From assembly GCA_018667335.1 (NCBI GenBank), contig JABIVD010000028.1:25354-89353 (forward strand): a DNA stretch of 64,000 nt. Reading direction: 5' to 3'. A program made the translations under genes and the position numbers. Under the pieces are notes generated by a model, which saw nothing but the letters and a program-made list of their open reading frames with translations, was not told the DNA's origin and made no database searches. This document shows positions 55,123 through 62,093 of the stretch, in pieces. This DNA comes from Rhodospirillaceae bacterium (GTDB lineage: Bacteria > Pseudomonadota > Alphaproteobacteria > UBA6615). The stretch's first letter is position 1. Each line of letters starts with the position of its first letter.

Positions 55123-55821
55123 ATGACCGGACCCGGAAACACCCTCGCCGACATCCCGTTTCTCACACCGCTGGATGAGTCTGCCCGCTCTGCGCTCGAG
55201 CAGCGCGCGCGCTGGGTGCGTTACACAGCCAACGACACAATCATCGACCGCGAGACCGAATCCCGCGACGTTTACTTCGTCGTCGAAGGCCGGGTGCGGG
55301 TGGTGAACTTCTCGATTTCCGGTCGTGAGATCACCTTCGACGAGATGACGCCCGGCGGCGTCTTCGGCGAGCTTGCAGCGCTGGACGGGATGCCCCGGTC
55401 AGCCGCCGTGGTGGCCCTGAACGACACTCTCGTCGCATCCATCTCGCCCGACACGTTCGTGAACCTCTTGCGTGACCATCCCGACCTCGCCATCGGCGTA
55501 ATGCAGGAGCTCACCAAGATCGTGCGCACCGCGACCGAGCGGATCATGGACCTAAGCACGCTGGGCGCGCACAACCGGGTGCATTCCGAAATCCTGCGCG
55601 AGGCCCGCGCGCATGCGGATGGCGACGCCAACTCCGCCCGAATCTCACCAATTCCTGTCCATGCCGATATTGCCGCCCGGGTCAGCACCACGCGCGAAAC
55701 GGTTGCCCGCGTTCTGAGCGATTTGACGAAGCAGGAACTCGTCAAACGCGAGAAGGACGCTCTGGTGATTCTCGACCTGGAGCGGCTAGAGGACCTTGTC
55801 GAGGAAGTTCGCGACTTCTAA
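55123..55821 (+). CDS. Crp/Fnr family regulator of the cAMP-binding CRP type
   Basis: FGELAALDGMPRSA nucleotide pocket; recognition helix TTRETVARVL keeps the R-E-x-x-x-R residues of E. coli CRP. Confidence 0.92.
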   Translation: MTGPGNTLADIPFLTPLDESARSALEQRARWVRYTANDTIIDRETESRDVYFVVEGRVRVVNFSISGREITFDEMTPGGVFGELAALDGMPRSAAVVALNDTLVASISPDTFVNLLRDHPDLAIGVMQELTKIVRTATERIMDLSTLGAHNRVHSEILREARAHADGDANSARISPIPVHADIAARVSTTRETVARVLSDLTKQELVKREKDALVILDLERLEDLVEEVRDF

Positions 55822-55862
55822 GTCGCTGTTATTTCAACAATTCTGAATCTTTTTGAACGACC

Positions 55863-55905
55863 TGTGATGCCTGTCACTGGGGTCTGGATGGTTGCGCACT
55901 ACATT
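55863..55905 (+). promoter_or_regulatory. Crp box plus -10 hexamer (class II promoter geometry)
   Basis: TGTGA-tgcctg-TCACT (55863-55878, centre 55870.5); TACATT starts at 55900, 29.5 bp from the centre. Confidence 0.78.
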
Positions 55906-55957
55906 TGGATCAACGGCGACGGATCTTCGCCGCACACCAATGAGAACGGAGCTGAAT

Positions 55958-56047
55958 ATGTCCCGACAAACCCGCATCAACGTCGCCGCTCTCCTCCTGG
56001 CCGCACCGATGGTGCTTGTCGGATTGTCGATGACCTCTGGGTTCTAA
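55958..56047 (+). CDS. Unannotated 29-aa hydrophobic small protein MSRQTRINVAALLLAAPMVLVGLSMTSGF
   Basis: GGAG Shine-Dalgarno 7 nt upstream, basic N-terminus and one TM-length helix; below the ORF-track length cut-off. Confidence 0.55.
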   Translation: MSRQTRINVAALLLAAPMVLVGLSMTSGF

Positions 56048-56097
56048 TTTCGCTGGTGTGATCTTTTCGCACTGATCCAACCTCCTCCTCTGGACTT

Positions 56098-56133
56098 GCG
56101 GCCGGCTCTCACGAGACCGGCCGCCTTTCTTTT
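56098..56133 (+). terminator. Intrinsic terminator closing the short Crp-box transcript
   Basis: gcggccgg-ctctc-ac-gaga-ccggccgc stem followed by ctttctttt. Confidence 0.75.
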
Positions 56134-56153
56134 CAGCCCACCGTTTCGGGCAG

Positions 56154-59953: not shown

Positions 59954-60005
59954 GCCAGCAATCTAGCCCAGTGCGCGATTCCGGAGAAAGCCGGTGCATG
60001 CCCGG

Positions 60006-60158
60006 CTAGAGCGTAACGGCCGCAACCGAGATCGTTCCCAGGATCAGGAACGAGACGATGACCCACTGGAGATAGAGGCGCAGCACGAACCTGCTGGCGT
60101 GACGGCCTGCAAATCGATGCAGCGTCAAATGATGCGAATGGGCGGGTCGGGGCGTCAT
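60006..60158 (-). CDS. Unannotated 50-aa small membrane protein MTPRPAHSHHLTLHRFAGRHASRFVLRLYLQWVIVSFLILGTISVAAVTL
   Basis: ATG at 60158, His/Arg-rich N-terminus and a C-terminal TM helix; ends 53 nt before the cyclase start. Confidence 0.5.
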   Translation of the reverse strand: MTPRPAHSHHLTLHRFAGRHASRFVLRLYLQWVIVSFLILGTISVAAVTL

Positions 60159-60221
60159 GGTCTCGTCGTCCGGTAGCAGATGATATCTGCCACCAAGGTG
60201 CACCGCCCTGCGCGGCCTGTC

Positions 60222-60252
60222 TGTGACATCCATCACTGTGACCCCCGTCACT
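60222..60252. promoter_or_regulatory. Two abutting Crp boxes in a divergent promoter
   Basis: TGTGA-catcca-TCACT (60222-60237) and TGTGA-cccccg-TCACT (60237-60252); TAGGTT at 60274 is 29.5 bp from the second centre. Confidence 0.8.
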
Positions 60253-60304
60253 TCCAACGACGTCGATCGTCGCTAGGTTCAGGGCACAACAAATGATGGA
60301 GAAC

Positions 60305-60430
60305 ATGATGATCGACACGCAACACAACGCCCGAACGCTAATCAGACACGGCAGCCTGATCATAACAGGCTTGGTCACAGGTGGACTGGGTGCGGCGCTC
60401 CTGGTCCTGCTGGCTGCAGCCACAGGCTGA
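60305..60430 (+). CDS. Unannotated 41-aa small membrane protein MMIDTQHNARTLIRHGSLIITGLVTGGLGAALLVLLAAATG
   Basis: GGAG Shine-Dalgarno immediately upstream (second ATG optimally spaced); one Gly-rich TM helix. Confidence 0.55.
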   Translation: MMIDTQHNARTLIRHGSLIITGLVTGGLGAALLVLLAAATG

Positions 60431-60482
60431 CCGACAACGGAACGTCTTTTCCTCGCGAACTGAACAACTTAGGATGCCCGCC

Positions 60483-62093
60483 ATGTTCAAACGCCCTGCA
60501 ACATTCGCAACTGTCATTACCATCGCAATGACTGTGGCTCCCGTCGCACAAGGACAGGGATCCGCCGGACGCGCCGGCGTGGCCGCCGCCGTTCGCGGGG
60601 ACGTGGTCCTGGTCGCGGCCGTACCGCAGCAGTCGAAACGGACTGTGGGTGAGAATGTGCGAAGCGGTGATCCGGTTTTCCTCGGGGATACCATCGAGAC
60701 CGGCCCGGATTCAGGGCTGCAGATCATGTTGATGGATGAAACCATCTTCACGATCGGCCCGGACGCGGCATTGATCATCGATGAATTCGTCTATGATCCG
60801 GAAACCAGTGCGGGCAAAGTCACGGCTTCGGTTCTGAAGGGCGCGTTCCGCTTCGTCTCCGGTCGTGTCGCCAAGGACGAGCCGCGCAATATGAACGTGA
60901 AGACCCCCGTCGGGACGATCGGCATTCGCGGCACATCGGCAGCCGGTCGGGTTATCCCGGCAAACCCGAATGACCCGAACAGCGAAATCTCTGCCGATAT
61001 CGTGCTGCTCGGACCGGGTGTCGATAACAACGCGAACGAGCGCGCGGGTCGCATCATTGTCTCCAATGCAGACACGTCGGTTGAAATTTCACGTTCGGGT
61101 TTCGGCACAAACATCGCAGGCATCGACGCACCACCCACCATTCCTGTTCGCTTTGACCCCGGGGTCGTGTCTGGCCTGACCGGTGACCTCGGCACGAGCG
61201 GAGGTGCGCGCCCGGCATCCCCCCCGGCTGGCGGACCCGACGCACAGAACGGAAATGACCAATCGGGCGATGGCAATCAGCCGGATGGTCAGGCAGGGCC
61301 CGGCACAAGCCAGGACAATGGCACGGGTTCGGCGACGGCCCGGCCCGCAGGACCAAACGCCGGCGCCGGATCCGGACCTGCAGGTGGTTCCGCGAATGAC
61401 CCCGTCACAGCCGGCGGGCCGGCAACGGGTGGTACAGCGGTGGCCGGCGGCCCAACCGTTGGCGGTGGGATAGGGCTCGGCCAGGCGACCAATTTATCGG
61501 GGCAGAATATTGGTGTTAGCGTCATCAATGCCGGGGTGCTGAACCAACTCGGCGCCACCCAAAATCAGACGCAACAGCTGCTCCTCGCGGCGGTCGAAGA
61601 GGGTGTGGGGTCGTTCAACAATACGATCACTACTTTCTCGCAATTGCAGAAAATTGAAACCGGCAGCGCGACCTTCAATTTCGGTACGGTCAATTTGTCC
61701 TATGTCAGCGGTGCGCACACAAACAGCGGCGGCAGCTATGACTCAACGGCGAAAATCGACTTCGGCGCCCGCTCCATCAAACTGACCGTCACGAATGTGA
61801 GCTACTTCTTCAACGGAGGCGCCACTCAGAATTTCACGTTCACTGACGACGTGGGTGGCTCCCCGTCTTTCAGCGGCGATACTGGCAAAGTATCAAAAAC
61901 CTGGGACTCGTCGGTCGACACTGCCCACTTCCCGACGGCACCCACCGACGGTTCGACTGCAAAGGTGACGGCGACGATCCTGAACAATACGGAAACGGGG
62001 GTCATCGCCGCGGCCGGCCGAGTCAATGTGAGGATCGAAGACAGTGGCAGCACCACGGTGATCGCGGGCGCCAACACGGTGAAAAAACAGTAA
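60483..62093 (+). CDS. Secreted FecR-domain protein with Gly/Pro/Ala linker and C-terminal beta-rich domain
   Basis: Signal peptide; FLGDTIETGPDSGLQIMLMDETIFTIGPDA, GAFRFVSG, VKTPVGTIGIRGT (FecR-type); alternative start 60474. Confidence 0.85.
   Translation: MFKRPATFATVITIAMTVAPVAQGQGSAGRAGVAAAVRGDVVLVAAVPQQSKRTVGENVRSGDPVFLGDTIETGPDSGLQIMLMDETIFTIGPDAALIIDEFVYDPETSAGKVTASVLKGAFRFVSGRVAKDEPRNMNVKTPVGTIGIRGTSAAGRVIPANPNDPNSEISADIVLLGPGVDNNANERAGRIIVSNADTSVEISRSGFGTNIAGIDAPPTIPVRFDPGVVSGLTGDLGTSGGARPASPPAGGPDAQNGNDQSGDGNQPDGQAGPGTSQDNGTGSATARPAGPNAGAGSGPAGGSANDPVTAGGPATGGTAVAGGPTVGGGIGLGQATNLSGQNIGVSVINAGVLNQLGATQNQTQQLLLAAVEEGVGSFNNTITTFSQLQKIETGSATFNFGTVNLSYVSGAHTNSGGSYDSTAKIDFGARSIKLTVTNVSYFFNGGATQNFTFTDDVGGSPSFSGDTGKVSKTWDSSVDTAHFPTAPTDGSTAKVTATILNNTETGVIAAAGRVNVRIEDSGSTTVIAGANTVKKQ

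Follow-up and report, generated by a model that had tools for sequence, protein, structure and literature searches.

What switches a CHASE2 sensor, and what do the outer-membrane (OM) proteins of the type 11 secretion system (T11SS) carry? Both questions are raised by one locus in a 64,000-nucleotide stretch of DNA from a Rhodospirillaceae bacterium (UBA6615; contig JABIVD010000028.1), called the window below, to whose positions all coordinates refer. An open reading frame (ORF) listing combined with Pfam and NCBIfam scans identified four genes at the locus (Table 1), at the same positions as in a preliminary description of this DNA; they encode a Crp-family regulator, an OM protein, a CHASE2 cyclase and a FecR-domain protein. 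We propose that the locus is a trans-envelope second-messenger module that joins an OM event, the FecR protein, the CHASE2 cyclase and a Crp read-out, and give this reading a probability of roughly 0.55. Its functional steps we infer throughout from sequence, models and comparison. The preliminary description saw in the locus one component for each cell layer, and this is borne out by the gene calls, domains, transmembrane (TM) segments and models.

The conserved part of the module was defined from 80 genome loci, seeded with the OM family and searched with the proteins of the window. A FecR-domain gene is present in 73 of the 80, and in 67 its distance from the OM gene is at most 1.5 kb; in the window these two genes are separated by the cyclase gene. 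A CHASE2 cyclase is found in 62. Where at least 8 kb is available on both flanks (37 loci), FecR occurs in 36, CHASE2 in 35 and both in 34. Represented among these loci are Alphaproteobacteria, Elusimicrobiota, Omnitrophota, Deltaproteobacteria, Spirochaetales, Planctomycetia and Geobacter. Diverged versions occur in genome bins of Caulobacter, Brevundimonas and Ahrensia, that of Caulobacter having the OM and FecR genes only. By gene content, an OM protein, one or more FecR proteins and a CHASE2 sensor constitute a gene set conserved across several phyla. A linked Crp gene is seen in 11 of the 80 loci, every one alphaproteobacterial, and on this distribution Crp is a lineage-specific add-on to the core of OM protein, FecR and CHASE2. 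The preliminary description had looked to all four genes being neighbours in relatives; the core does recur, but Crp is linked in this minority only.

The sensor in the set need not be a cyclase. One locus (L086) encodes the FecR-OM fusion P0209 and a long FecR protein together with a CHASE2 histidine kinase, a hybrid kinase and response regulators, and has no cyclase, so that the OM/FecR module appears to be a general input device for CHASE2 sensors. An Omnitrophica locus (L085) has the OM, FecR and CHASE2 cyclase genes followed by those for a DUF6901 protein, a Lactamase_B/Apyc1-like protein, a cyclic nucleotide (cNMP)-binding protein and an MMPL/RND transporter with a cNMP-binding domain. 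The Apyc1-like protein, of metallo-beta-lactamase fold, is likely a cNMP phosphodiesterase. As these cNMP genes take the place of Crp, a self-contained cNMP circuit would be a general theme, with readers that are specific to the lineage.

The OM protein has many homologues, several of them annotated as DUF560, and a search with the family profile collected 663 clusters (50% identity) at E <= 1e-30. Among 24 aligned members, 13 match SlipAM (best 1.3e-7) and nine match TPR_Slam. The AlphaFold2 (AF2) model has a mean confidence score (pLDDT) of 84.5, with TPR helices at residues 58-152 and 14 long strands, and its best PDB folds are the 14-strand OmpG, CymA and FadL. Against PDB sequences the family profile returned TPR noise only. 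Family sequence and model together support the assignment of this protein to a DUF560/Slam-like family with the T11SS layout of TPR and 14-strand barrel, in agreement with the Slam-like label of the preliminary description. The start of the gene is uncertain (57542-57620) because a terminator-like hairpin (57615-57629, minus strand), located between the cyclase stop codon and the OM gene, overlaps the earliest start candidate.

The FecR protein is predicted to be secreted: a Sec signal peptide was read by eye and the FecR domain follows directly. The AF2 model of its C-terminal domain consists of a helix and eight strands, in which pLDDT is 78-95 for most 10-residue blocks of the barrel (residues 71-209) and 52 for one loop block. 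The top Foldseek matches of this domain are almost only the NHBA C-domain, the TbpB C-lobe, hemophilins (from Acinetobacter, Stenotrophomonas and Haemophilus) and fHbp, at probabilities of 0.96-1.0; the profile of the domain, searched against PDB sequences, gave a single match, NHBA, at E 1.6, and Pfam assigned the domain to no family. The domain models as the eight-strand barrel typical of T11SS cargo. Distant loci encode long (400-530 residues) FecR proteins whose C-terminal domains are homologous to it (hhalign 98.5%, E 2e-15). The protein of the window ends in KKQ, and nearly all of 26 homologues end in K/R/A-Q. In loci with several FecR genes, the short FecR proteins (about 300 residues) carry low-complexity C-terminal tails and their gene adjoins the cyclase. 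In the NCBIfam scan the FecR protein weakly matched Lsa33, a surface adhesin of Leptospira. All aligned homologues share a near-invariant G-T inside their FecR domain; in the window it lies within GIRGTS (60894-60911). E. coli FecR and P. aeruginosa FoxR undergo autoproteolysis at their GT motif (PMC8144685), and GIRGTS may be the counterpart of this self-cleavage motif. In five Elusimicrobia loci (L019, L021, L025, L026, L049) the FecR protein encoded beside the OM gene is giant, with 1,670-3,297 residues.

How could these parts work together? The C-terminal barrel of the FecR protein would engage the OM protein or be exported by it. Tethered through the long disordered linker, the FecR domain would stay or act in the periplasm and there switch the CHASE2 domain. 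An event at the surface or OM would by this route be turned into cAMP synthesis. In the marine alphaproteobacterial lineage the linked Crp would then read cAMP, bind three TGTGA-N6-TCACT boxes and drive three transcription units. These would be an abundant short RNA encoding a 29-residue membrane peptide; an operon of a micro-ORF and FecR, which would place positive feedback on the sensor; and, probably, an operon of a micro-ORF, the cyclase and the OM protein. A more specific version of this scheme can be drawn, in which the FecR cargo is threaded through the OM protein, with the barrel as a ligand-binding head on the surface, the linker in the pore and the periplasmic FecR domain as the switch of CHASE2. 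The T11SS clade concerned (at least 663 clusters at 50% identity) would then be a general input device for CHASE2 cyclases and histidine kinases, not an exporter of nutrient-acquisition proteins or adhesins. We regard the threaded arrangement as possible, with the odds against it. If true, it would account for what CHASE2 domains detect and turn the T11SS into a trans-envelope signalling machine.

Natural fusions bear on where the FecR domain acts. Two members of the OM family, P0209 and P0239, are single chains of FecR, TPR and SlipAM. NsrA of Sinorhizobium meliloti, read from pSymB where its gene lies beside cyaK, has 1190 residues with FecR at 66-160, TPRs at 417-587 and a C-terminal barrel. 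Since FecR is at the N-terminus in the fusions and in NsrA, that is on the periplasmic side of the OM protein, the domain must be periplasmic there, which favours a FecR domain that works in the periplasm over a cargo that is wholly displayed on the surface. NsrA, with FecR, TPR and barrel in one chain, also makes it fair to call the receptor of the window split. The preliminary description had proposed a split receptor with a surface cargo: the split holds and a cargo-type C-terminal barrel is modelled, but display of the full FecR protein on the surface is doubtful. In P0205, another member of the OM family, a CsgG/LpoB-like domain occupies the N-terminal place that FecR has in the fusions.

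The fusions invite a reading in which nothing is secreted at all: the FecR barrel would dock on the TPR, the OM loops would sense, and the signal would be relayed from TPR to FecR to CHASE2 much as in FecA-FecR. The lack of a Pfam cargo-domain match and the published model of NsrA, which exposes barrel loops only (PMC7529298), would suit such a bridge. We nevertheless consider it distinctly unlikely. The best structural matches of the C-terminal domain are specifically exported eight-strand barrels, Slam translocons are relatives of the OM family, and the long disordered linker is of a kind that we infer to be typical of exported or threaded proteins. The same cargo-like architecture, taken with the predicted Crp feedback on the FecR gene, could instead point to a secretion checkpoint similar to FlgM. 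Here the periplasmic FecR protein would hold the CHASE2 cyclase off or on until export through the DUF560 protein removed it, and Crp-driven resynthesis would reset the system. The short, apparently barrel-less FecR proteins that adjoin the cyclase in multi-FecR loci would accord with this, but covalent FecR-OM fusions cannot be exported, and a checkpoint of this kind is very unlikely.

Table 1 Features of the locus, with positions in the window
Feature	Position	Strand	Basis or remarks
Crp/Fnr-family cNMP-dependent regulator, 232 aa	55123-55821	+	cNMP_binding 1.3e-21, HTH_Crp_2 5.7e-12 (Pfam)
Terminator-like hairpin overlapping crp stop codon	55811-55826	+	pattern scan
Predicted Crp box 1, TGTGATGCCTGTCACT	55863-55878	+	pattern scan and conservation
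Short abundant transcript: 29-aa ORF, conserved CU-rich 3' region, terminator hairpin	55920-56135	+	metatranscriptome contigs
RNA contig starts	55920, 55921		runs X22, X21; depth 55, 43
Single-TM micro-ORF, 29 aa	55958-56047	+	conserved L001-L006 (MSRQTRIN...SGF); pN/pS 0.14-0.5
Terminator hairpin with U-tract ending short transcript	56098-56135	+	
OM protein: signal peptide, TPR, 14-strand barrel; DUF560/Slam (T11SS)-like	56154-57620	-	Pfam, AF2, homologues
Barrel of OM protein	~56160-57080	-	AF2
TPR region of OM protein	~57087-57371	-	TPR_19 2e-8
CHASE2 class III adenylate cyclase, predicted	57692-59953	-	CHASE2 4.7e-61, Guanylate_cyc 4.1e-22 (Pfam)
Class III catalytic domain	57941-58495	-	
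CHASE2 domain	58793-59914	-	
Single-TM micro-ORF upstream of cyclase gene, 50 aa	60006-60158	-	conserved L001, L003; positional equivalent L007; pN/pS 0.27-0.5
Two tandem predicted Crp boxes sharing one base, TGTGACATCCATCACT, TGTGACCCCCGTCACT	60222-60252	+	pattern scan and conservation
Single-TM micro-ORF, 45/40 aa	60293/60308-60430	+	conserved L001, L003; positional equivalents L005, L007; pN/pS 0.44
RNA contig start	60298		runs X24, X30; depth 29, 11
RNA contig start	60306		runs X25, X26; depth 51, 589; adapter abuts start
RNA contig start	60308		run X21; depth 85
Secreted FecR-domain protein, predicted	60483-62093 (alternative start 60381)	+	FecR 6.6e-11 (Pfam)
FecR domain	60687-60941	+	Pfam
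G/P/N/Q-rich linker, ~95 aa	~61179-61463	+	
C-terminal helix and 8-strand barrel	61635-62090	+	AF2

The cyclase has one N-terminal TM segment, a periplasmic CHASE2 domain and three TM segments before the catalytic domain. For this last domain the best alignment is with CyaB of P. aeruginosa (3r5g, E 7e-32). Both metal-binding Asp residues and the Lys, Asn and Arg are present; the second specificity position is Ser, where CyaB has Thr. The preliminary description had given the ATP-specific residues as intact. The enzyme is class IIIb-like by sequence, and its residues are consistent with the use of ATP but do not prove it.

The regulator contains an intact cNMP cassette, FGEL...PRSA (GE...RS), and an intact recognition helix, RETVAR (R-E-x-x-x-R), both read by eye. 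Its best PDB sequence matches are GlxR and the Crp of Mycobacterium tuberculosis (1e-19), followed by S. meliloti Clr (7pza, 7.6e-16) and E. coli CAP (3e-13); the nearest two, GlxR and M. tuberculosis Crp, bind cAMP. In the NCBIfam scan it did not reach the CRP equivalog level (75.6 bits against a cut-off of 266) and it should thus be regarded as a Crp/Fnr-family member and not as the E. coli CRP orthologue. Its cassette, recognition helix and TGTGA half-sites are consistent with a Crp-type cNMP-dependent regulator. The crp gene starts 58 nucleotides after the gene for an RND pump. This pump belongs to an efflux operon that flanks the locus on one side, an HpcH aldolase gene being on the other. 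The order of RND pump and HpcH flanks is kept only in close relatives and is read as plain synteny.

A search of the whole window for TGTGA-N6-TCACA with at most one mismatch found three boxes, at 55863, 60222 and 60237, each of which reads TGTGA-N6-TCACT. The preliminary description had placed three boxes matching at nine of ten positions within the locus; they are indeed there, and are the only such boxes in 64 kb. All three fall between the genes of the locus, in 861 bp of intergenic sequence. By chance 1.18 boxes would be expected per 64 kb and about 0.016 per 861 bp (Poisson P(>=3) ~7e-7). The position and orientation of the boxes relative to the FecR gene are kept in relatives L001-L008, L010 and L011, out to about 40% OM-protein identity. 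In seven aligned relatives the half-sites of box 1 (TGTGA, and GTCACT running into GG) are invariant and three spacer positions vary. In L007 the tandem boxes are 175 bp apart with one micro-ORF beside each, which suggests one box for each divergent promoter. The S. meliloti Clr consensus HGTYHCNNNNGRWACW has no match in the window; TGTT-N8-AACA has one unrelated match, and neither occurs in the locus. Judged by their sequence, the boxes of the locus are CRP-type sites and not Clr-type. A sigma-70 pattern scan gave no convincing promoter at the boxes, and no box was found upstream of crp within the window, even at two mismatches.

Each predicted box stands ahead of a conserved micro-ORF, and each of the three micro-ORFs encodes one hydrophobic segment. 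Sequence of the locus is frequent in seawater metagenomes and is also found in marine metatranscriptomes, and assembled RNA contigs of eight metatranscriptome runs were placed on it. The contigs begin shortly downstream of the boxes: the start at 55920 is about 50 nucleotides from the centre of box 1, and that at 60306 is 61.5 nucleotides from the centre of the box at 60237-60252, a class I-like distance. A class II spacing (-41.5) was rejected on account of the latter value. A low-depth contig ends at 60165, and the other tandem box has its centre 64.5 nucleotides away. With an RNA end at about 60306, the 40-residue micro-ORF is probably leaderless from the ATG at 60308. One contig spans 60308-62300 and covers the full FecR gene, so micro-ORF and FecR gene are co-transcribed. 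Contig depth on the crp, cyclase and OM genes is about 0-5 (0-3 on crp). Conservation of boxes and micro-ORFs in relatives and these contig starts would fit the feedback arrangement put forward in the preliminary description. Its short transcripts led by tiny membrane proteins hold in part: the 29-residue ORF has a stand-alone short transcript, but the other two each stand at the head of an operon, that of FecR or that of the cyclase. In three runs the first ~200 nucleotides of the FecR operon (60306-60510) have a contig depth far above that of the FecR ORF (589 and 40 in one case). Such a fall after the micro-ORF could reflect attenuation, processing or merely a break in the assembly graph.

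The short transcript has a fold z-score of -4.85, and its 3' untranslated region (56048-56135) is better conserved than its ORF. In this region TTCGCA is invariant and the adjacent ATCC near-invariant; next comes the CU-rich CCTCC stretch and after it TGGACTTGCGGCCG, which is invariant across seven relatives. The CU-rich stretch is mostly unpaired in the minimum-free-energy fold. An Rfam scan of 55700-60600 matched no family. The transcript is possibly a dual-function small RNA.

Several points weigh against the module as proposed. The call of a cargo barrel depends on one AF2 model with marginal Foldseek E-values (2e-3 to 5e-2) and a TM-score of about 0.3, and the 26 homologues of the FecR protein gave no match to Pfam TbpBBD or lipoprotein C. 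The OM protein of the window itself scores 19.0 bits (E 1e-3) against SlipAM (PF04575), below the gathering score of 22, and no solved Slam structure is among the fold matches of its model. The barrel of NsrA has no detectable homology to that of the window; hhalign of the OM family against NsrA aligns the TPR only, at 27% probability. Linkage of Crp is restricted to one clade, and Dongia mobilis has an OM and FecR pair with no cyclase within 9 kb. The RNA contigs are unstranded assemblies whose ends only approximate 5' ends, and they are silent on cAMP dependence. Finally, the short S. meliloti FecR protein smc02177 is reported to be dispensable for signal perception (PMC5498481), which means that a FecR protein can be an output and not an input.

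This last point leads to a reading in which the FecR protein is a surface or periplasmic effector, for example an adhesin, that is controlled by cAMP-Crp and exported through the DUF560 protein, while CHASE2 senses something else. No unit is more strongly expressed than the FecR gene, which lies behind predicted Crp boxes, and smc02177 is a Clr target as well as dispensable (PMC5498481). The weak Lsa33 match and the FecR proteins of 1,600-3,300 residues in some loci would suit an adhesin. Set against this, linkage of FecR and CHASE2 persists in lineages without Crp and with CHASE2 kinases (PMC5192318). Moreover, P0209, P0239 and NsrA all carry FecR as part of the OM chain, at its periplasmic end, and S. 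meliloti needs NsrA to perceive the signal (PMC7529298). We think a pure output role unlikely and retain the trans-envelope module. What the locus and its relatives suggest is a CHASE2 domain whose switch is a FecR-domain protein that is tethered to a Slam-like OM protein; this would link the question of CHASE2 input to that of T11SS cargo.

The closest known system is the cAMP cascade of S. meliloti, with the CHASE2 cyclases CyaD1, CyaD2 and CyaK, the OM receptor NsrA and the regulator Clr (PMC5498481, PMC7529298, PMC13001267). NsrA is required there for cAMP signalling and signal perception (PMC7529298). Both systems have CHASE2 class III cyclases, a Crp-family regulator and an OM part with FecR and TPR, and the domain order of NsrA beside cyaK confirms the likeness that the preliminary description had drawn. 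In the S. meliloti locus clr-cyaD1-smc02177-smc02178, smc02177 encodes a FecR-domain Clr target with a Clr box (PMC5498481); here too the gene for a secreted FecR protein adjoins those for cyclase and regulator and carries predicted boxes for the regulator. The differences can be summarised as (i) two genes in the window in place of NsrA, the FecR part being separate with a T11SS-cargo-like barrel and the OM part DUF560-like; (ii) TGTGA-N6-TCACT boxes rather than the Clr consensus; and (iii) the additional micro-ORFs. BLASTP of the FecR protein against NsrA gave no significant match. The preliminary description knew of no account of the full wiring; this was overstated, as the S. meliloti locus (PMC5498481) and a Campylobacterota cluster (PMC9239204) precede it.

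With the T11SS (Slam1/2, NilB, HrpB; DUF560/PF04575) the window shares the TPR and 14-strand OM protein (10.1101/2023.03.15.532718; PMC8406197). T11SS cargo has an N-terminal effector and, as targeting domain, a C-terminal eight-strand barrel of the TbpB/hemophilin type (10.1101/2023.03.15.532718). The FecR protein would resemble TbpB, fHbp, hemophilin and NilC in its predicted Sec signal, a variable N-terminal domain and the modelled C-terminal eight-strand barrel; as with T11SS cargo, its gene mostly lies close to that of the OM protein. However, its N-terminal domain is a FecR signalling domain, absent from the described cargo architectures, its partner is a CHASE2 sensor and not a TonB-dependent receptor, and the sequence match of the window proteins is sub-threshold. 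Outside the animal-associated cluster, T11SS proteins have almost no assigned cargo (PMC12282271). That survey mentions neither FecR nor a cyclase, the published T11SS cargo surveys describe no FecR-type cargo and no cyclase link, and we found no publication that joins DUF560 and FecR.

Three further systems share parts of the arrangement. In Campylobacterota, Mo et al. reported clustered genes for a CHASE2 cyclase, a cAMP phosphodiesterase, a FecR-domain OM protein and a TPR protein and proposed one pathway (PMC9239204). The domain set is that of the window; their report is a one-paragraph neighbourhood note, from which the TPR protein can be likened by description only, and it has no T11SS/DUF560 assignment, cargo barrel, Crp boxes or transcripts. 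FecA-FecR-FecI likewise employs a periplasmic FecR domain to pass an OM event to an inner-membrane signalling step. The FecR protein of the window differs in having neither a cytoplasmic anti-sigma domain nor a TM helix, and its predicted output is cAMP; in the ORF list and Pfam scan no extracytoplasmic-function sigma factor or TonB-dependent transducer gene was found among the genes of the locus. The Burkholderia operon of a LysM-FecR protein and a CHASE2 histidine kinase (BiofilmReg) also sets a secreted FecR protein beside a CHASE2 sensor (PMC5192318), but through a LysM anchor to peptidoglycan rather than an OM barrel and with a two-component output rather than cAMP; the L086 locus has a CHASE2 kinase too.

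Measured against these systems, what is new is an OM partner that is probably of T11SS type, a FecR protein modelled with a cargo-type barrel, and the breadth of the OM, FecR and CHASE2 set; we found no publication that gives either of the first two. New as well is the Crp-box and micro-ORF read-out with in-situ transcripts. In the marine lineage this read-out is compact, with Crp, three boxes and two abundant in-situ transcripts, and thus renders the hypothesis directly testable in a heterologous host. The comparison suggests that NsrA is the fused form of a widespread two-protein device.

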